DNA of 60,366 bases, the filler included. It is 3 parts of 3 records of this genome, joined end to end, with 100 filler letters (N's around TTAATTAATTAA, not from the genome) between each part and the next. Parts side by side here need not be neighbours in the genome. Positions count along the whole stretch, not along the records: positions 1 to 19,076 come from SRR22947725_217; 2 more parts are not named here. One strand, given 5' to 3'. Each line of letters opens with the position of its first letter. Within the stretch, counting starts at the first letter, position 1. Made by a program: the position numbers and the translations under genes. Under the pieces are notes generated by a model that was not told the DNA's origin, ran no database searches, and worked only from the letters and a program-made list of their open reading frames with translations. Positions 1 through 19,176 of the stretch are shown here, piece after piece.

Positions 1-1
1 T

Positions 2-997
2 CAATGTAGGGTTAAAATTCATTCTGGTGGTGGGGCTATACTTCCTACCGAACAAGGTCATATTAATAAAAGGGAAGCATCTTGCGGTGACAGATTATCT
101 TGTCAGGTTGCTGTTAAACAAGATATGGAAATTGAGGTGCCTGAAGAAGTTTTTGGCGTTAAAAAATGGAGATGTAAGGTTCGAAGTAATGACAACGTTG
201 CAACTTTTATTAAAGAATTAATACTTGAATTACCTGAAGGTGAAGATGTGAATTTTCGTGCAGGTGGTTATATACAAATAGAAGCTCCTAAATATTCTTT
301 ATCTTATAAAGATTACGAAGTAGGTAAAGAATATCACGAAGATTGGGATAGGTTTAAAATTTGGGACTTTAACGCTGAAAGTGATGAACCCATTGAAAGA
401 GCTTATTCTATGGCTAATTGTCCAGCTGAAAAAGGCATAGTTATGTTGAATGTTCGAATAGCTTCTCCTCCTCCAGGTTCAACAGGAATTCCAGCAGGTA
501 AAATGTCCTCTTATATATTTAATTTAAAAAAAGGTGATGAAGTTGTTATTTCAGGTCCTTTTGGTGAATTTTATGCTAGGGACACAGATAAAGAAATGGT
601 TTTTATAGGTGGTGGAGCAGGCATGGCTCCTATGAGAAGTCATCTTTTCGATCAGTTTAATAGAATTAAAACAGATCGTAAAGTTTCATTTTGGTATGGA
701 GCAAGGTCTAAGAAAGAAATGTTTTACGTTGAAGACTTTGATAAGTTAGCAGCTGAAAATAAAAATTTTACGTGGCATGTTGGTTTGTCTGACGCCATGC
801 CTGAAGATAAATGGACCGGTCACAAAGGATTTATCCATAATATACTTTTTGAACAATATTTAAAAGATCACCCAGCTCCTGAGGATTGTGAATATTACAT
901 GTGTGGTCCACCTATGATGAACCAATCTGTTATTAATATGTTATTGGATCTTGGGGTTGATAAAGATGACATCATGCTAGATGATTTTGGTGGATAG
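2..997 (+). CDS. nqrF: Na+-translocating NADH:quinone oxidoreductase subunit F (5'-truncated at window edge)
   Basis: Frame is open from base 2 ([17 protein letters not shown]...RLSCQV, end of 2Fe-2S domain) into ORF 125..997; [40 protein letters not shown] and C-terminal LDDFGG are NqrF hallmarks. Confidence 0.96.
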
Positions 998-1138
998 TTT
1001 ATTAATTTTAATAAATTATTTTTGTTTCACTTTATCTTTCAATATGCATAATGGTTAATATAAAATATTAGTTGTTTTGGATTTTATTTTTGTTACTTTT
1101 AAAAATTATTTATAAAAGTTTTAAGTAGATAAACTCAT

Positions 1139-2827
1139 ATGGAAATTTTTATTTTTATATTTCCTTTACTTAGTTTGTTAATTTCATTGTTACCATTTTC
1201 TAGTAATCACTTAAATATTGCATTTATTATAAATTGTTTTTGTATGATTTTTTCTTTTTGTTTAAGTGTTTTTCTTTTTATTAAATTATTTCAATTAAAC
1301 AACGATATTCCATTATATTTTTATCCCTTGATTGAATTTAATAAAGATTTTGTAGCATGGTCATTAAGATTAGATATATATGTGTCAACATTTGTATGCA
1401 TAGTAACATTTGTGTCTTCATTAGTGACTATATACTCAATTAATTTTTTTAAAGAACAGTATTTAAATTTAAAGTTAATAAGAAATGTTTCTTTGTTAAC
1501 AATTGGAATGTTAACTATAATTTCTTCAAACAACTTAATTCAATTTTTCATTGCGTGGCAAATAATTTTATTTTCTTTTTTTCTTCTTGTTAATCGTAAA
1601 AATGCGGACGAAACTTATATAAACAGTAGTAAAATTTTTTTACACAATCGTATTTCTGATTTAGCGTTTTTTTTTAGTGTCTATCTACTTTATAAACTAA
1701 ATAATTCTATTTATTTTGAAATTATTTTTGAAAATAATAACTTTGTTAACAATAATATTTTATTTTGGGGCATTACTATAAATAGGGCTGAATTAGCTGT
1801 GTTCCTTTTATTTTTTTCATGTTTATTAAGATTTAGACAGTTTTTTATCTCAAATTGTCTATATGACATTAAAAATTTAAATATACCTACACTTACCTTG
1901 ATTTTTTGTTCTGCATTACTTCCATTAATTATCTTTTATACATTTAGATTTTTTCCTTTAATTTTTTCTACTCCTAATTTTTTAAATACAATGATTCCTT
2001 TAAGTCTTTGTTTAATTTTCATTTTAATTTATTTATCATTTAACACATCAAACATTAAATATGTAATTTCTTACTTAGCTTTTTCTCAAGCATCTATAAT
2101 ATTTTATATTTTTTCAATCAAAGAATATCATGCTGCAATGTTTTATTATATTACCTTTTCTTTATCTACAACAATGCTTTATTTGTGTTTAGGCTATGTT
2201 ATGACAAAGATGAACAATGTTTCTAATGTTAAAGCAATGGGTGGTCTTGCCTTTAAAATGCCCTCTATGTTTTTATTCACCTTAATTGCATTTTTTTCGA
2301 CGTCTGGGGTTCCTTTTTTTTCAGGGTTTTATTCTCATGAAGTCATTATTTCAACTTTGTATTCTTCGGAGCAAGCTATTTTAGTTCCTTCTATGTTAAT
2401 GGGTATGAGTGCTTCTTTTTTGATTTCTTATGTTTTATTAAAAAATATAATATTGATATTTTTAGGAAAGAATAAGGGTAATATTCATGAATTTAATAAA
2501 ATCAATGAAAACTCATCTACAAACAAACTCATATTTTTTTGTTTGGGTTTATGTTTAGTTTTTGCTGGCTGGTTAACAAAAAACTTGTTTGACGGTATAA
2601 ATGCAGAACATTTATGGAATTCATTAATATATAATGATATTGATCTTTATACTAATTCCATTTTAAATTTGTCTGATAAAGTTAAATATTTTTTAACGTT
2701 TTTTAGTCTTTTAGGAATGTTTTTGGCTGTTGTAAATTATTTAATAATGCCATTTATATTGAATAATTATAAACTAAAATACTATAGAATATTTATTTTA
2801 TATAACAAATATTTTCTACGTTTTTAA
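1139..2827 (+). CDS. Divergent NuoL/ND5-like antiporter-family membrane protein (orphan, key charged residues substituted)
   Basis: Very hydrophobic 562 aa; NuoL-like segments WSLRLD, NRISD, IKYVISYLAFSQ, AAMF, MGGL, GVPFFSGFYS; directly upstream of birA, where the nuo operon normally ends. Confidence 0.8.
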   Translation: MEIFIFIFPLLSLLISLLPFSSNHLNIAFIINCFCMIFSFCLSVFLFIKLFQLNNDIPLYFYPLIEFNKDFVAWSLRLDIYVSTFVCIVTFVSSLVTIYSINFFKEQYLNLKLIRNVSLLTIGMLTIISSNNLIQFFIAWQIILFSFFLLVNRKNADETYINSSKIFLHNRISDLAFFFSVYLLYKLNNSIYFEIIFENNNFVNNNILFWGITINRAELAVFLLFFSCLLRFRQFFISNCLYDIKNLNIPTLTLIFCSALLPLIIFYTFRFFPLIFSTPNFLNTMIPLSLCLIFILIYLSFNTSNIKYVISYLAFSQASIIFYIFSIKEYHAAMFYYITFSLSTTMLYLCLGYVMTKMNNVSNVKAMGGLAFKMPSMFLFTLIAFFSTSGVPFFSGFYSHEVIISTLYSSEQAILVPSMLMGMSASFLISYVLLKNIILIFLGKNKGNIHEFNKINENSSTNKLIFFCLGLCLVFAGWLTKNLFDGINAEHLWNSLIYNDIDLYTNSILNLSDKVKYFLTFFSLLGMFLAVVNYLIMPFILNNYKLKYYRIFILYNKYFLRF

Positions 2828-2863
2828 ATGTGTTAAATCTTTTTTTAAATTACAGGATTTATT

Positions 2864-3589
2864 TTGTTAAATATTAACTTAAAGATATTAAATGTTTGTA
2901 CTAGCACTAATGATATTGCTTTCAATGCCGCTTTAAGTGGTGAAGTTGAAGGAACCTCTTATTTAGCTCATACACAAACTGAAGGAAGAGGAAGAAATCA
3001 AAACAAATGGACTTCTTCAAAAGGAAATTTATTCTTATCAACAATTATTAAGCCAAAAAGTGATAAATCTTTGTGGCATCAATTATCAGTGATAGTTGGT
3101 TTTTCAATAGTTCAAGTATTAGTTGACTTAGGAGTAAATAGTAATTTAATTGATCTAAAGTGGCCCAATGATGTATTAGTAGACAACAAGAAAATTTCTG
3201 GTGTTTTGTTAGAGTCTTCTGATAATTTTATAATAGTTGGTATAGGTTTAAATATTTTAAAAACTCCTATTCTTGAAACAAAGTGGGGTACTACAAAGTT
3301 AAAGGATCATTTAAAAGGTTCCATTAATATTAAAAATATAGGCTTAAAAATATTGAACAAAGTATTTTACAATTATTATTCTTGGGAAAAATTTGGTTTT
3401 GTCTTCTTTAAAGAAGACATTAATAAAAAAATGTTCAACATAAATAAAAACATAATTATAAACGTTAACTCAAAATCCAATCTTTTAAATGGTGTTTTTT
3501 TAGGTATAGGAGACAGTGGTGGTATTAAAGTAAAAACTAATTCAAAAATTACAGAATATTTATCTGTTGAGAATTTCACTTTTGTTTAG
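2864..3589 (+). CDS. birA: Biotin--[acetyl-CoA carboxylase] ligase, no N-terminal HTH
   Basis: STND, QTEGRGR, LKWPNDV, KKISGVL, VGIGLN motifs. Confidence 0.93.
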   Translation: MLNINLKILNVCTSTNDIAFNAALSGEVEGTSYLAHTQTEGRGRNQNKWTSSKGNLFLSTIIKPKSDKSLWHQLSVIVGFSIVQVLVDLGVNSNLIDLKWPNDVLVDNKKISGVLLESSDNFIIVGIGLNILKTPILETKWGTTKLKDHLKGSINIKNIGLKILNKVFYNYYSWEKFGFVFFKEDINKKMFNINKNIIINVNSKSNLLNGVFLGIGDSGGIKVKTNSKITEYLSVENFTFV

Positions 3590-3601
3590 ATTGGTCTTGT
3601 A

Positions 3602-4405
3602 ATGATTTTAGTTGTTGATTGTGGTAATACTAATACTGTTTTTGCTTTATACTCTTATGATAAAAGTATTAATAAAATAGCTTGTTGGAGAATACATAAT
3701 AATTCTAAGAGAACAGCTGACAGTTATTATCCGTGGCTTTCACAAATGTTAACATTATCTGATGTTAAAATTGATGATATTACTGGAATTTGTATTGCAT
3801 CTGTGGTTAATGAAACTCTTTTTAACATTAAAATATTTATCAAAAAATATTTCAAAATTAACCCATTGGTAATTGATAATGATATTTTAGGGTTAGGCTT
3901 AAAAGTAAACATTGATAACCCTGAAGAAGCAGGTGCTGACCGTTTGGTTAACTCATTTGCTATAAAATGTCTTAATTTATCTCCAGCTATAGTAATTGAT
4001 TTTGGAACTGCCACAACTTTTGATTTGGTTGGAATTGATGGAAGTTATAATGGCGGCATTATAGCTCCCGGTGTTAATTTATCACTAGAAGCTTTGTACT
4101 TGGCTGCTGCTAGGTTACCTAGAGTTGCCTTAAAACCTTTGTCTAATAAAAAGTCAATTATTGGAAAAAATACTGTCAATGCAATGGAATCAGGTATTTA
4201 TTGGGGTTATGTATCGATGATTGAAGGTCTTATAAATAAAATTAAAATTTTAGATGAATACAAAAACTATAAAGTTGTAGCAACTGGTGGTTTGAGTAAT
4301 TTATTTAAAAAATCATTGTGTTGTATTGATCATATTGAAGAAGATTTAACCTTAATTGGCTTAGTTAATTTATATTTACATAATTTCAATAATTTAAAAA
4401 AATAA
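3602..4405 (+). CDS. coaX: Type III pantothenate kinase
   Basis: VDCGNTN, GADR, IDFGTATTFD, GGIIAPG, ATGG motifs. Confidence 0.95.
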   Translation: MILVVDCGNTNTVFALYSYDKSINKIACWRIHNNSKRTADSYYPWLSQMLTLSDVKIDDITGICIASVVNETLFNIKIFIKKYFKINPLVIDNDILGLGLKVNIDNPEEAGADRLVNSFAIKCLNLSPAIVIDFGTATTFDLVGIDGSYNGGIIAPGVNLSLEALYLAAARLPRVALKPLSNKKSIIGKNTVNAMESGIYWGYVSMIEGLINKIKILDEYKNYKVVATGGLSNLFKKSLCCIDHIEEDLTLIGLVNLYLHNFNNLKK

Positions 4406-4421
4406 GATAAAAGGGTTTTAA

Positions 4422-6077
4422 ATGAGTTGGGTTAATTCAGATTTGTTATTTCTACCTGTTGGTGGCTCTGAGGAAATTGGAATGAATGCAAATTTGTATC
4501 ATTATCAAGATAAATGGATTTTAGTTGATTTAGGAATATCATTTCCTGATGAAACTGATTTAGGTATTGATGTGTTACTGCCTGATTTTGATTTTATTCA
4601 GTCTTTAGGTGATAAGTTTTTAGGTATTTTGTTAACTCATGGTCATGAAGACCATATAGGAGCAATACCTTATTTTGCTGATAAAATTAATTGCCCCATA
4701 TGGGGGACTGCTTTTACAATTGCTTTACTTAAGAGAAAATTAAGAGAAAGTAATAATAATACAAAACTAGTTCTGAATGTCCTTTCTATAGGTGAAAAGC
4801 TAAAACTAGGTGATTTTATAATTGACACTATTCAAACATCTCATTCAATTCCAGATCCAGTATCATTTTTAATATCAACTAAAGAAGGAAATATTTTTCA
4901 TTCAGGTGATTGGAAATTAGAACAAGCAAAAAATTTAAATGAAAATTTTGATTTTGATACTTATCGTTCATTAGGGAATAATGGTGTTTTAGCAATGATT
5001 TGTGATTCAACCAATTCTTTAGTTAAAGGAAAAACGCCTTCCGAAGATTTTGCTTATGAAGGTTTGTACAAAGTAGTTAAAGATAAACTAGGCGCTGTCC
5101 TTATTACATGCTTTTCTTCAAATATTAGTAGAGTTAAATCGATTTTAGATATAGCTTTAAAGACAGATCGTTCAATTTTAGTCATAGGCAGATCTTTACT
5201 TAGAGCTATAGACGCTGCTAAAGAGGTTGGTTACTTAAAACATGTTCCAGATTTTTTGACTTTAAAAGATTTTAACGTGATTTCTCGGTCTAACGTTTTA
5301 GTAATTGCTACTGGTTCTCAAGGTGAACCAAATTCAGCATTGTCAAGAATCTCTAGAAATACTGACAAATTTGTCAATTTAATAAAAGGGGATACTATAA
5401 TTTTTTCAAGTAGAAAGATTCCTGGCAACGAGAATGCTATATTAAAGGTACAGAATAGATTTCTTGATAACGGCGTAGAATTAATTACAGATGAAGATGC
5501 AGATATCCATGTATCTGGTCATCCATCTCGAGATGAGCTAATAGAAATGTATTCTTTTATAAAGCCTAAAATTTCAATACCTGTTCATGGCACAAGAGAA
5601 CATATTGAAGCACATGCTAAATTAGCTAATGATTGTCAAGTTCCTAATGTAATTAAACCAAAAAATGGAGATATTATAAAATTAAATGGTTTATCTCCGA
5701 CCGTTTTAGATACAAAAAAATTCATAACAAATGTTTTTGATGGTGGTGATGTAGTTCCTATTGATAATGATAGGTTTGTGTCCAGAAGACATACACTATG
5801 GAATGGCTTTGTTCATATCTCAATTGTAATTGATATGGATGGATACATAATTTCACCTCCACAAATAACACAGACAGGAGTGTCTGATAGAAATAATATA
5901 GAAGATTTTTTATTAGACTGTTCTTTAAAAATTGAAACTATTTTTAATAACGATAATTTTCAAAACAAAGATTCTGATGAGGAAATTTGTGATTATATCA
6001 AAAAAAATATTAGAAAAGATTTTAAGGCATTATTCCATAAAAGACCTTCAATGAATGTGCATTTAATTAGGGTTTAA
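4422..6077 (+). CDS. rnj: Ribonuclease J
   Basis: GGSEEIGMN, LTHGHEDHIG, HSIPD, GSQGEP, HVSGH, PVHG. Confidence 0.95.
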   Translation: MSWVNSDLLFLPVGGSEEIGMNANLYHYQDKWILVDLGISFPDETDLGIDVLLPDFDFIQSLGDKFLGILLTHGHEDHIGAIPYFADKINCPIWGTAFTIALLKRKLRESNNNTKLVLNVLSIGEKLKLGDFIIDTIQTSHSIPDPVSFLISTKEGNIFHSGDWKLEQAKNLNENFDFDTYRSLGNNGVLAMICDSTNSLVKGKTPSEDFAYEGLYKVVKDKLGAVLITCFSSNISRVKSILDIALKTDRSILVIGRSLLRAIDAAKEVGYLKHVPDFLTLKDFNVISRSNVLVIATGSQGEPNSALSRISRNTDKFVNLIKGDTIIFSSRKIPGNENAILKVQNRFLDNGVELITDEDADIHVSGHPSRDELIEMYSFIKPKISIPVHGTREHIEAHAKLANDCQVPNVIKPKNGDIIKLNGLSPTVLDTKKFITNVFDGGDVVPIDNDRFVSRRHTLWNGFVHISIVIDMDGYIISPPQITQTGVSDRNNIEDFLLDCSLKIETIFNNDNFQNKDSDEEICDYIKKNIRKDFKALFHKRPSMNVHLIRV

Positions 6078-6086
6078 GGAGATTAA

Positions 6087-6329
6087 ATGAGCTTAGTATC
6101 AATTTTTTTAGTATACTTAATGGTATGGATGATTGTATTTTTCATGTCTTTACCAATAGGAATAAATGTTTCTAGAAATTTAGAATTAGGTAACGCAAAT
6201 TCAGCTCCAACCAAGACACATTTAAAACTTAAAGTCTTACTTTGTACTATAGTTTCATTATTTCCAACATACTTAATATATTGGTTAGTTAAAACTGAAT
6301 ATTTATTTCTTATCATTCAAAATTTTTAA
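6087..6329 (+). CDS. DUF1467-family small membrane protein
   Basis: Y..WMIVFFMSLPIGI and GNANSAP motif; usual position after rnj; AGGAG RBS. Confidence 0.8.
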   Translation: MSLVSIFLVYLMVWMIVFFMSLPIGINVSRNLELGNANSAPTKTHLKLKVLLCTIVSLFPTYLIYWLVKTEYLFLIIQNF

Positions 6330-6431
6330 TTGCGGCTACTCTTAAACTTTATTTTTAATTTTGAAATTGAATTTTCTAACTTTCTGAGGTAGTTAATTTA
6401 TATAATCTTTTCTAGGCATGGTTTTATTAAT

Positions 6432-6860
6432 ATGAATAAAATAATATTTTTAGCTTCTGATCATGGTGGATTTTCTCTAAAAGAAACTATAAAAAAATAC
6501 TTGATTAATAATAAGATAAAAATTGAGGATTTAGGTTGTTCTTCTCTAGATGCTGTAGATTATCCCGATTACGCTAAATTGTTAGCAAGTAAAATAGAAA
6601 ATAATAATAATTCATTTGGGTTGTTGTTTTGTGGAACTGGAATAGGAATTTCTATGGCAGCGAATAGATTTTCTCATGTTAGAGCAGCTTTATGCACTTC
6701 TGTTGAAATGGCTTCAAAGAGCAGAAAACATAATGATGCAAATGTGTTAGCTTTAGGTGGTAGAATTTTAACAGAAGAATTATCAAAAGAGATTGTTTTC
6801 GAATTTTTAAATACTAAATTTGAAAAGGGAAGACATTTATTAAGAGTTAAAAAAATTTAA
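6432..6860 (+). CDS. rpiB: Ribose-5-phosphate isomerase B
   Basis: ASDHGG, DYPD, CGTGIG, HNDANVL, GRH. Confidence 0.96.
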   Translation: MNKIIFLASDHGGFSLKETIKKYLINNKIKIEDLGCSSLDAVDYPDYAKLLASKIENNNNSFGLLFCGTGIGISMAANRFSHVRAALCTSVEMASKSRKHNDANVLALGGRILTEELSKEIVFEFLNTKFEKGRHLLRVKKI

Positions 6861-6887
6861 ACAGAAAATACAAGTAGGGAATTTAAA

Positions 6888-8159
6888 ATGTTTTATAAAG
6901 AAGGCTTTTTTAACAAGGATATAAATAATTATGATGCCAGTTTATCAGAAATGTTAGATAAGGAACTTTATAGACAACAAAACCAAATTGAATTAATAGC
7001 ATCTGAAAATATTGTATCCAAGTCTGTATTACAAGCTCAAGGATCTGTTCTTACAAATAAATATGCAGAAGGCTATCCAGGAAAAAGGTATTATGGTGGG
7101 TGTGAATTTGTCGATGAAGTTGAACAACTTGCAATTGATAGAGCAAAAAAATTATTTAATGCAAATTTTGTTAATGTTCAACCACACTCAGGTGCTCAAG
7201 CAAATCAAGCTGTTTTTCTGGGTATTTTAAAACCAGGCGACACAATTCTTGGTATGAGTTTAGCAGCAGGTGGCCATTTAACTCATGGTGCCAAACCTAA
7301 TTTATCTGGAAAATGGTTTAACTCCATTCAATATGGTGTAAGAAAAGAAGATTCTCTTATAGATTTTGATGAAATTGAAAGATTATCTATTGAATATAAA
7401 CCAAAATTAATAATTGCTGGTGGATCCGCATATTCAAGAATAATAGATTTCCAAAAATTCAGAGAAATTGCTAATAAAATAAATGCGTATTTGCTTGTTG
7501 ATATGGCTCATTTTTCTGGTTTGGTTGCGGGTGGTGCTCATCCTAATCCGATTGAATTTGCAGATATAGTTACTACAACAACTCATAAAACTCTTAGATC
7601 TGGAAGAGGTGGTATGATTTTAACAAACAATTCTGATTTAATGAAAAAAATTAATTCAGCTGTATTTCCTGGACTTCAAGGTGGTCCACTTATGCATGTT
7701 ATTGCAGGAAAAGCTGCTGGTTTTGGTGAAGCTCTTTCAGATGAATTTAAGCTTTATGCAAAAAACATTGTTCTTAACGCTCAATGTCTATCAAACACCT
7801 TAATTGAAAGAGGGTATAAAATAGTTTCTGGAGGGACGGATAATCATATAGTTCTTTTAAGTTTACAAGATAAAAATATAACAGGAGCATCTGCTGAAGT
7901 GGCTTTAGAAAACTCTGGTTTAACTTGTAATAAAAATGGTGTTCCTTTTGATCCACTTCCACCAACTATTACTTCAGGCATTAGATTTGGTTCAGCAGCT
8001 GCTACTACAAGGGGTTTTAAAACAAATGAATTTAAGATGGTTGGAAATTTTATTGCTGACGTTTTAGATCATTTTGATAACAATATTTCTAATTCAGAAC
8101 AGGAAAAAATAATATCAGATAAAGTCAAAATTTTGTGTGATAAATTTCCAATTTATTAA
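6888..8159 (+). CDS. glyA: Serine hydroxymethyltransferase
   Basis: [39 protein letters not shown]. Confidence 0.98.
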
Positions 8160-8173
8160 TTTAGGAGATTAGA

Positions 8174-8626
8174 ATGAGATGCCCTTTTTGTGGTGAAGAA
8201 GATACTCAAGTAAAGGATTCAAGAGCTAGTGAAGATGGAGCTACAATAAGAAGAAGAAGGCTCTGTTCTAGCTGTGGTTCAAGGTTTACAACCTTTGAAA
8301 GAATTCAACTGAGAGACTTGATTGTAATTAAAAGAAATGGCAAAAAAAATCCATTTGATAGAGATAAGTTATCCAAATCTTTATTAATGGCACTAAGAAA
8401 ACGTCAAACTGATGATGACGCAATTGAAAGGGCTATAAATGGTATTGTAAGACAACTTGAGTCTAGAGGTGATAATGATATTCACTCAAAGTTAATTGGA
8501 GAATTAGTCATGAATGCTTTAGCTCAAATTGATAATGTTGCTTATATTAGATATGCATCTGTTTACAGAAATTTTAGAGAAGCAAGTGATTTTGGTAAGT
8601 TTGTTGAAAAAGAAATTAAAGATTAA
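8174..8626 (+). CDS. nrdR: Transcriptional repressor NrdR
   Basis: MRCPFC, VKDSR, RRRRLC..C..RFTTFE, ATP cone, AYIRYASVY. Confidence 0.97.
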
Positions 8627-19076: not shown

Positions 19077-19176
19077 NNNNNNNNNNNNNNNNNNNNNNNN
19101 NNNNNNNNNNNNNNNNNNNNTTAATTAATTAANNNNNNNNNNNNNNNNNNNNNNNNNNNNNNNNNNNNNNNNNNNN
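19077..19176. other. Artificial contig-joining spacer (N44-TTAATTAATTAA-N44)
   Basis: Ns flank a 12-mer with stops in all six frames; ppiD is cut at the edge; gene repertoire changes across it. Confidence 0.99.

Follow-up and report, generated by a model that had tools for sequence, protein, structure and literature searches.

A truncated, degenerate nuoL remnant behind nqrF in SAR116 bacteria, probably a non-pumping vestige under residual selection

The subject of this analysis is a stretch of DNA of 60,366 nucleotides (nt; the window) assembled end to end from three contigs, with a TTAATTAATTAA linker flanked by runs of N at each junction (19077..19175 and near 42.9 kb; 176 N overall). The first part (1 to ~19,076) is Levibacter-like, with 97% nucleotide identity to the complete chromosome of Candidatus Levibacter sp. 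Uisw_134_01 (genome G002, locus L002). It is the sole part tied to the gene of interest, an open reading frame (ORF) that lies between nqrF and the block of birA, coaX and the RNase J gene rnj (Table 1). The initial annotation described this ORF as an intact homologue of the complex I subunit NuoL that had been repurposed as a stand-alone protein. The homology is confirmed here, and the ORF appears to be what is left of a nuoL gene after the loss of the rest of complex I; hereafter, we refer to it as the remnant.

With 26-74 stops in the other five frames and 292 of the 5058 single-base changes (5.8%) creating a stop in DNA of 22.4% G+C, the open frame of the remnant is maintained rather than accidental. 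The encoded protein matches PF00361 (1.5e-29) and PF00662 (Proton_antipo_N, the NuoL/MrpA-type N-terminal domain; 1.7e-5), that is, it shows the Proton_antipo_N plus Proton_antipo_M architecture of NuoL. The best NCBIfam models, far ahead of others, are those of NuoL; the match spans positions 4-557 of 630, and the scores are both under half of the curated cut-offs (TIGR01974, 188.8 bits against 407.5; NF005141, 188.6 bits against 556). The protein falls outside the MrpA, DabB and NdhF groups with which the initial annotation had proposed to compare it, as indicated by the scores of the hidden Markov models (HMMs), by the profile matches to PDB chains given below and by the lack of DabA. The model scores are 60.9 bits against a cut-off of 937 for MrpA, 54.3 against 542 for MrpD, and, far below the cut-offs as well, 96.5 against 963 bits (NF005626) and 33 against 588.7 bits (TIGR01960) for NdhF. 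DabA (PF10070) was found in none of four genomes (G002, G017, G009 and G069), the control search being positive in 2 of 14 genomes.

Proteins of this kind form a family of their own. A word-indexed search retrieved about 60 proteins of 560-566 amino acids (aa) with identities from 99% to 35%, none of those of 562-566 aa being interrupted, and true NuoL (630-670 aa) was only 22-28% identical to the window protein in the same search. An exhaustive HMMER search of 1.84 billion cluster representatives yielded three full-length remnant-type clusters (P0006, P0111 and P0020) and one fragment, below which the matches were ordinary NuoL. All named relatives belong to SAR116, the closest being the Levibacter protein (89% identical); orthologues from SAR116 single-cell and metagenome genomes are 35-40% identical. 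Among 151 genomes of the order, 17 carry a full-length remnant (618-850 bits, frames of 560-586 aa), about 100 have a normal NuoL (~250-340 bits, 643-661 aa), and about 30 have neither. None of the 17 full-length copies contains an internal stop, and frameshifted copies likewise were not seen in these genomes.

The surroundings of the remnant are constant. It directly follows nqrF in 17 of the 17 loci compared, and the order nqrF-remnant-birA-coaX-rnj-rpiB-glyA is found in all 15 loci that reach glyA. The same right flank adjoins complex I genes elsewhere: in alphaproteobacteria with complex I, nuoL is followed by nuoM and nuoN (each recognized in some of the loci) and then by birA-coaX-rnj, and in the nuo loci of SAR116, by a second antiporter-like gene and then birA-coaX-rnj-rpiB-glyA (7 of 7 loci; nuoM and nuoN both confirmed in six, L060-L062 and L064-L066), with a gap of 4 nt between nuoN and birA in L060. 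The left flank is also common, an EamA-family gene (58% identical) preceding nuoA in G069 and nqrM/apbE/nqrA in Levibacter G002, where the order after this gene is nqrM(-), apbE(-), nqrABCDEF, so that nqrM and apbE, known NQR maturation factors, are separate genes. Because the flanks are shared on both sides, it appears that an nqrM-apbE-nqr cassette replaced nuoA-K inside the old locus and left nuoL in place. Accordingly, NqrA was found in seven nqr-bearing genomes and not in the nuo control G069, and NuoH was present in G069 and absent from all seven of the nqr-bearing genomes searched, the closed G002 genome included.

The initial annotation had called the gene an orphan, and this holds in the relatives, where it was checked: the complete G002 genome lacks NuoH, and its other PF00361 genes are found only in an Mrp-like operon ~200 kb from the remnant, which itself sits outside that operon. 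The Mrp-like operon (L041 8418..15740; G002 772.4-779.7 kb) encodes three PF00361 subunits of its own, of 569, 484 and 497 aa, together with an MbhD/MbhE-type protein and small ORFs that are MrpB-, MrpC-, MrpG- and MrpE-like by eye. It occurs in genomes with and without the remnant (570-aa matches).

The residues of the proton pathway were compared in alignments with true NuoL (37 true NuoL and 39 remnants, both deduplicated at 90% identity; residue numbers are those of the window protein). Every pathway substitution listed in the initial annotation is borne out by this alignment. Q141, which stands at the TM5 Glu of NuoL (TM, transmembrane helix; a position that we take to be E. coli E144, the E. 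coli numbers of the annotation presumably following common usage), as well as R231, F256, Y336, F340, T344 and H400, all stand in columns whose conservation among the 37 true NuoL is 90% or higher. Only one of these seven classical positions, K->R231, is fixed in the remnant family, the other six being variable (Table 1); at the TM12 position, the family members P0018, P0024 and P0025 have Lys. The K->R231 and A->R233 changes are each at least 90% fixed in the remnants, at columns that are 100% K and A in true NuoL. The motifs that the annotation considered intact are indeed retained, namely NRxxD (N170/R171/D174), MGG (M367/G368) and the TM12 break motif (G390/P392/F394/G396/S399). As also proposed, the protein ends where the lateral helix starts: its C-terminus, ...YNKYFLRF, aligns with NKWYFDE of true NuoL, and the lateral (transverse) helix and the C-terminal anchor helix TM16 are both missing. 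The pathway losses, together with the absence of NuoH from the relatives searched, uphold the view that this is not a working complex I pump subunit.

Table 1. Features of the remnant locus in the window, with the pathway positions of the encoded protein
Feature	Position	Strand	Basis or remark
nqrF, 3' part; last gene of the putatively acquired Na+-NQR operon	2..997	+	open-ended ORF
AT-rich spacer between nqrF and remnant, 141 nt	998..1138	+	sequence read
truncated degenerate nuoL remnant	1139..2827	+	562 codons, ATG start; TM1-TM15 of NuoL, without lateral helix or TM16
Q141, place of TM5 Glu	codon 1559..1561	+	variable: Q in 51% of 39, Y in other sub-lineages
R231-F232-R233, TM7	codons 1829..1837	+	TM7 Lys -> R231; Ala -> R233
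F256, place of TM8 His	codon 1904..1906	+	variable: F in 46% of family
Y336, F340, T344, replacing TM11 His/His/Lys triad	codons 2144..2170	+	all three positions variable
H400, place of TM12 terminal Lys	codon 2336..2338	+	N in 54% of family, H here
C-terminal YNKYFLRF and stop	2801..2827	+	truncation at first lateral-helix residues
birA	2864..3589	+	Pfam PF03099/PF03309/PF22505 scan of the birA-coaX-RNase J block
coaX	3602..4405	+	same scan
RNase J (rnj)	4422..6077	+	same scan
rpiB and glyA	6432..8159	+	further conserved right flank; rate controls

Decay extends over the whole protein. Conservation among the 37 true NuoL reaches 90% or more in 98 columns; of these, 17 still have the NuoL residue in the remnants, 8 have another residue fixed, 70 vary and 3 are missing. 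The 17 retained columns are mostly Gly, Pro and Trp, plus D79, R171, D174 and R270; the eight refixed ones are K->R231, A->R233, G->S227, G->L230, P->Y242, F->S343, A->S387 and R->K435. The remnant also evolves faster than any other gene of the block: leaving aside L002, which is nearly identical, its copies share 35-40% identity with the window protein, compared with 91-92% for NqrF, 83-86% for GlyA, 68-74% for CoaX, 67-72% for RNase J and 54-57% for BirA. Measured by branch lengths relative to the flanking housekeeping proteins, it evolves at ~3.7x their rate and the working SAR116 NuoL at ~0.45x, an approximately eight-fold acceleration.

Selection on the remnant is weaker than on working nuoL and has not ceased. 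The ratio of nonsynonymous to synonymous substitution rates (dN/dS; pairwise Nei-Gojobori) is 0.18-0.33 for remnant pairs with dS <0.85 (window against L002, 0.051/0.20 = 0.26) and 0.055-0.077 for the working nuoL of the sister genomes L060-L063; the flanking genes range up to ~0.05 (nqrF), 0.04-0.13 (glyA), 0.06-0.18 (coaX), 0.08-0.23 (rnj) and 0.08-0.46 (birA). Constraint on the remnant is ~4x weaker than on working nuoL, yet far from neutral, and as many as 74 columns are at least 95% conserved in a family that is only 35% identical. Across 30-residue windows, conservation among the remnants is flat (0.53-0.72; r = 0.205 with the NuoL profile), and the TM7b-TM8 segment, the most conserved stretch of NuoL (0.87), is among their least conserved (0.57). 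The case that the initial annotation made against a dead pseudogene is strengthened by the dN/dS range and by the lack of stops in the full-length copies. Neither of the marks of a decaying relic that it named, dN/dS near 1 or frameshifts, was found, and close relatives do show whole-gene loss. As a separate observation, a jump in dN relative to close relatives is confined to the remnant and birA in one locus (L014 = G057, 5891..8361; L010 against L014: remnant 0.421, birA 0.271, coaX 0.062), which fits a recombination import spanning both genes.

Descent from nuoL is supported by trees and by the predicted structure. When NuoM, NuoN and Mrp outgroups were included, the remnants branched at the base, as the sister group of all NuoL, with a stem of length 1.49; we take this basal placement to reflect long-branch attraction and replaced that tree with one that omits those outgroups. 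An approximately unbiased (AU) test does not reject the union of the remnants with SAR116 NuoL (p = 0.457). The tree without NuoM, NuoN and Mrp, to which the proteins P0112 and P0114 were added, nests 16 remnants within the NuoL of low-GC SAR116 with support of 98-100 in the Shimodaira-Hasegawa-like approximate likelihood ratio test (SH-aLRT), the topology being (L060-L062, (P0114, (P0112, remnants))). Searched against PDB chains, the family profile has NuoL of the alphaproteobacterium Paracoccus denitrificans as its best match (8qby_L, 8.9e-69), and scores of 84 bits for MrpA and 142-145 bits for NdhF. The best fold matches of the AlphaFold2 model (predicted local distance difference test, pLDDT, 74.3; predicted TM-score, pTM, 0.81) are again Paracoccus NuoL, 9g9y_L and 8qby_L (TMq 0.77-0.78). 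Judging from these comparisons of sequence and predicted fold, the remnant is a descendant of nuoL in situ and not a new transporter family.

The two proteins that branch off below the remnants are less diverged, and one of them, P0112, seems to represent an earlier stage. P0114, a 644-aa NuoL available as a protein only, lies on the stem between the working low-GC SAR116 NuoL and P0112; it retains E, K, H, H, H and K, has Thr at the TM12 Lys and shows a degenerate start of the lateral helix. None of the genomes searched carries it, the best match being 52% identical. P0112 (644 aa), 42% identical to the working L060 NuoL and 35% to the window protein, has lost the TM5 Glu (GWQ) and the TM7 Lys (IRSAQ, Lys->Arg), and has Tyr at the TM8 His and F/N at the second His and the Lys of TM11. 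Still present are the first His of TM11, the Lys of TM12 and a lateral-helix region that is degenerate, reads YNKWFLRK... at the site where the remnants are truncated and runs on beyond it. A gene 96% identical to P0112 is carried by genome G042, which has NqrA and in which NuoH is not detectable.

At this stage, nuoL does not stand alone. On the metagenome contig L091 (1..4158), a degenerate nuoL (644 aa) is followed by an intact nuoM-like ORF (500 aa) and a nuoN-like ORF in which the contig ends, and in G042 (contigs C319, C288 and C167 = L077, L092 and L098) the nuoN-like gene is followed by birA and coaX. Of its conserved columns, the NuoM-like protein retains 112 of 182 (13 of 22 where the conserved residue is charged or His), with TM5 Glu and the Lys of TM7 and TM8 in place and Asp at the TM12 Glu; for the NuoN-like protein, the counts are 48 of 96 and 9 of 13. 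Between L091 and G042, dN/dS is 0.245 (nuoL), 0.169 (nuoM) and 0.394 (nuoN), values that are noisy because dS is only ~0.04. This orphan LMN module may still work, for example as a stand-alone antiporter, and may be of more interest than the stump itself. To judge by the alignment, the Glu->Gln and Lys->Arg changes predate the truncation, and the loci would line up as an erosion series, from nuoA-N through nqr with nuoLMN and nqr with a truncated nuoL to nqr alone. A separate truncation in the window lineage, with P0112 grouped with the window sub-clade, was considered and is rejected by the nuoL data (delta lnL, the difference in log-likelihood, 197.6), which favours a single truncation.

The last member of the series, nqr without any trace of nuoL, is represented among the 30 genomes that have no NuoL-type match, 12 of which have nqrF. 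Six of these 12 could not be included because the contig ends right after nqrF; in all six that are examinable (G017, G009, G048, G127, G039 and G045), birA directly follows nqrF with a gap of 55-99 nt. In the flanking-gene trees, the genomes with nqr group together in a single clade (SH-aLRT 99 and 96), sister to the nuo-bearing low-GC genomes, and the remnant-free genomes fall into two separate groups. There have been one or two independent excisions: the tree needs two, and its well-supported branches force only one. Clean excision is the only kind of remnant loss seen. Given the clean deletion in 6 of 6 nqr relatives, the remnant is dispensable and is not an obligatory NQR subunit, which was one form of the accessory role raised in the initial annotation; separate genes for NqrM and ApbE speak against that role as well, and so does G001, which has nqr and no PF00361 gene. 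A GTTTTGAGTA-like motif stands directly before the remnant ATG in L002, less exactly in the window (1117..1138) and L003, and directly before birA in the remnant-free loci L054-L056; as a weak hint, this pattern would fit excision from the start codon of the remnant to that of birA. One contig of G017 (L094, contig C57; 3..1654) carries a NuoM/ND4-like frame with three in-frame TGA beside a gene that is ATP synthase alpha-like by eye; its appearance is that of mitochondrial DNA (TGA = Trp) misplaced in the G017 bin, not of a bacterial nuoM pseudogene.

Expression signals at the locus are few. No terminator-like site was found on the + strand in the nqrF-remnant-birA interval, promoter-like sites in the spacer between nqrF and the remnant are no commoner than in shuffled sequences, and no Shine-Dalgarno (SD)-like motif precedes the ATG of the remnant in any of seven loci (the window and six others), in each of which birA has an SD-like site of its own. 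The promoter and terminator scans gave no signal beyond chance and do not tell whether birA has its own promoter. Four RNA-labelled sequencing runs from one study cover 1..8200 evenly and assemble into contigs of 38-71 kb, which indicates DNA in RNA-labelled libraries; cover of the locus is therefore no evidence of transcription. Assemblies of the remnant tend to break: in runs X1-X4, its first half (window 1262..2200) is found only in contigs of 200-290 nt and its neighbours in pieces of at least 1 kb, and in six metagenome-assembled genomes (G145, G133, G021, G005, G137 and G115; L042, L048, L050, L051, L043 and L049) the contig stops just after nqrF. These breaks and short contigs suggest high within-population diversity in the remnant gene.

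Taken together, these results lead us to a model, to which we assign a probability of about 0.6, in which the ORF is a non-pumping vestigial NuoL under residual selection. Under this model, a horizontally acquired nqrM-apbE-nqrABCDEF cassette would have replaced nuoA-K in the ancestor of one low-GC SAR116 clade, and nuoL-nuoM-nuoN would at first have stayed behind. A second deletion in the line of the window would then have removed the end of nuoL (the lateral helix and TM16) together with nuoM and nuoN, leaving a 15-helix NuoL stump directly upstream of birA-coaX-rnj. The protein would still be made and would fold like NuoL. With the pathway residues lost or unfixed and neither a redox module nor a neighbouring antiporter subunit, it presumably no longer moves protons or sodium. 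An experimental parallel is Thermus Nqo12 without its transverse helix, which folds and conducts protons, conduction being abolished by K385I (the TM12 Lys) and sped up by E132Q (PMC11496545). The remnant is flanked by the nqr operon and by essential genes, and no terminator-like site separates them; a stop or frameshift would therefore probably be polar on birA-coaX-rnj, and only clean excision would be tolerated. As long as the remnant is translated, selection would keep it foldable and membrane-insertable, giving a dN/dS of ~0.25. This account of polarity and fold upkeep fits the even conservation, the mainly structural nature of the surviving residues and a dN/dS like that of nuoL at the LMN stage.

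Several observations weigh against this model. A dN/dS of ~0.25 means that most amino acid changes are still rejected, which is much for a jobless protein. Moreover, 32 of the 74 columns that are at least 95% conserved are remnant-specific, including the fixed Arg233 and the N445..H450..K454 loop; the two observations could equally mean a new job. The genomes are streamlined, with a coding density of 95.9% in Levibacter, a cultured relative with a closed genome (PMC12421898), yet 1.7 kb has been kept in three sub-clades until synonymous sites are near saturation. The polarity argument is one that we infer, with promoter and terminator scans that are uninformative. Proton transfer through His400, or through the Lys that replaces it in a few members, is still conceivable. 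The history is also less certain than the series implies. The adjacency of nqrF and nuoL in G042 is deduced, the two contig ends not overlapping. In the outgroup-rooted birA+coaX tree, G042 is nested within the nqr clade next to L058 and L059, which lack the remnant, and the nuoL tree puts its NuoL outside all remnants, so that the order of events depends on the root. Both trees could be accommodated by a root of the nqr clade on the branch that leads to G042, either alone or together with L058 and L059, a placement that the long outgroup branch allows.

The same evidence can be read as exaptation, which we consider possible and on balance unlikely. The stump might have been re-used as a stand-alone membrane protein that works with Na+-NQR or in sodium-cycle homeostasis, as a non-obligatory NQR accessory, an assembly scaffold or a regulator, probably co-transcribed with nqr. 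Its working surface would comprise R231/R233/Q234 (a twin Arg in TM7), Y242, the N445-H450-K454 loop and the invariant N-terminus MEI..FP..S. Such re-use would explain why dN/dS is not near 1, why eight NuoL-invariant columns have been refixed and 32 of the near-invariant columns are specific to the remnants, and why the place after nqrF is constant in 17 of 17 loci; the predicted fold is intact, and the gene has been retained in streamlined genomes (PMC12421898). However, all six examinable nqr genomes without the remnant have lost it cleanly, in one or two events, and its position is inherited from nuoL rather than newly gained. ApbE and NqrM are already present as separate genes, the full-length degenerate nuoL of G042 and L091 is at least as constrained (dN/dS 0.245), conservation is even, with no concentrated site, and the start codon has no SD-like motif in 7 of 7 loci. 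The inherited position and the losses, along with the fastest evolution in the block, the ~4x weaker constraint and the flat profile (r = 0.205), are also the reasons why we do not retain the term repurposed.

Two further readings concern ion flux and polarity alone. That the frame is open only because early termination would silence birA-coaX-rnj, the sequence itself being irrelevant and dN/dS <1 reflecting the generic demands of a translated hydrophobic polypeptide, seems improbable to us. It would account for losses by whole-gene excision, for the 17 full-length copies among 151 genomes without stop or frameshift and for the flat conservation profile, and it agrees with the ancestral nuoN-birA gap of 4 nt, which makes co-transcription old, and with the lack of terminator-like sites among nqrF, the remnant and birA. 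Yet a dN/dS of 0.18-0.33 and 74 near-invariant columns exceed what hydrophobicity alone would lead one to expect, and many of the near-invariant residues are polar ones in predicted helices (N131, N132, R171, D174, R231, R233 and Q234). A NuoL fold is predicted (pTM 0.81), and an SD-like site stands before birA itself in all seven loci. Quite improbable in our judgement is a residual transporter, that is, a passive, uniport or leak flux of H+, Na+ or K+ that aids sodium or pH homeostasis through D79, N131/N132, R171, D174, R231 and the broken helices TM7 and TM12. E. coli NuoL shortened at the C-terminus reportedly mediates Na+ uptake. Here, conservation across the family reaches at least 95% at D79, R171 and D174 and in the TM12 break motif G390-P392-G396-S399, and the exit position is occupied by H400 (by Lys in a few members). 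A working channel, however, would fix its pathway, and six of the seven classical positions are unfixed; the TM7b-TM8 segment has fallen from 0.87 in NuoL to 0.57 in the remnants, the gene is dispensable in sister lineages, and G002 has a separate, complete-looking Mrp-type operon. The engineered modules speak on both sides: in isolation they conduct protons, and the TM5 Glu->Gln change speeds conduction, but loss of the TM12 Lys alone blocks it (PMC11496545). We therefore return to the vestigial NuoL as the reading to be preferred.

Nothing in the rest of the window is linked to the remnant. The nqrF of the window is 98% identical to that of L002, where it follows nqrA-E, and 70% identical at the nucleotide level to that of G001. 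The latter genome was considered as kin of the remnant and rejected: only nqrF of the window matches it (window 1..6000), it has no PF00361 gene, an ORF that is ApbE-like by eye follows its nqrF, and the 30% of words that it shares with the window trace to 19.2-42.9 kb, on another contig. That second part (~19.18-42.94 kb) is 98% identical at the nucleotide level to G001, whose genome of 1.3 Mb has an nqr operon of its own. The third part (43-60.4 kb) has 40-47% G+C and encodes sulfatases, a Ser/Thr kinase, FtsK, a MutS-like protein, YchF and a pseudopilin; it has no match to G001, nor to G002 as far as searched (to 50 kb).

The replacement of nuo by nqr, with nuoL beside nqr, is known in SAR116 groups LGC2-C and LGC2-D, and the SAR116 nqr was noted to resemble that of HTCC2181 (Roda-Garcia et al. 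2021, PMC8547437). In the literature on SAR116, NQR and complex I, on orphan antiporter-like subunits and on Levibacter, we found degeneration of this nuoL gene nowhere described. What is new here is its degeneration, the residual selection, the excision and the nuoLMN stage; the presence of nuoL beside nqr is already in print. The locus records the stepwise dismantling of a 14-gene respiratory complex after its replacement, from the swap through the nuoLMN trio and the truncated nuoL to nothing, and adds detail to the switch from nuo to nqr already described for low-GC SAR116. In the study of complex I, it offers a natural counterpart of the engineered, dissected antiporter modules, long kept foldable by selection, in which the residues that the fold requires (survivors at 17 of the 98 conserved columns) can be told apart from those that pumping requires. 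Metabolic reconstructions would be led astray if the gene were labelled 'NADH-quinone oxidoreductase subunit L' or 'proton-conducting transporter'. If exaptation were true, the remnant would represent a new use of the antiporter-like fold, a natural antiporter-like module in a non-pumping role.

Among known systems, the closest is NuoL/ND5/Nqo12 itself. The remnant shares with it PF00662 and PF00361, the predicted NuoL fold, the genome position of nuoL, nesting in the tree and the retained motifs. It differs in being ~80 residues shorter, without the lateral helix or TM16, in lacking the TM5 Glu, the TM8 His, the His/His/Lys of TM11 and the TM12 Lys, with Arg at the TM7 Lys, in its ~4x higher dN/dS, and in the absence of NuoH from all seven nqr-bearing relatives searched. 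MrpA/MrpD and DabB belong to the same PF00361 superfamily and are known antiporter-like subunits outside complex I; the remnant, in contrast, has much weaker Mrp HMM matches, no mrp operon context and no DabA in four genomes. MrpA/MrpD and DabB keep their charged pathway residues. The nuoL beside nqr in LGC2-C and LGC2-D is of the same gene family, clade and position as the remnant, and the available portion of that report (PMC8547437) notes its presence only, not the truncation, residue loss, selection, deleted lineages or nuoLMN intermediate. Finally, the engineered Nqo12 without its transverse helix (Beghiah et al. 2024, PMC11496545) resembles the remnant as a lone NuoL-type subunit that still folds in the membrane, but it retains the Lys/His/Glu wire and conducts, whereas the remnant has lost the TM12 Lys and most of the wire.

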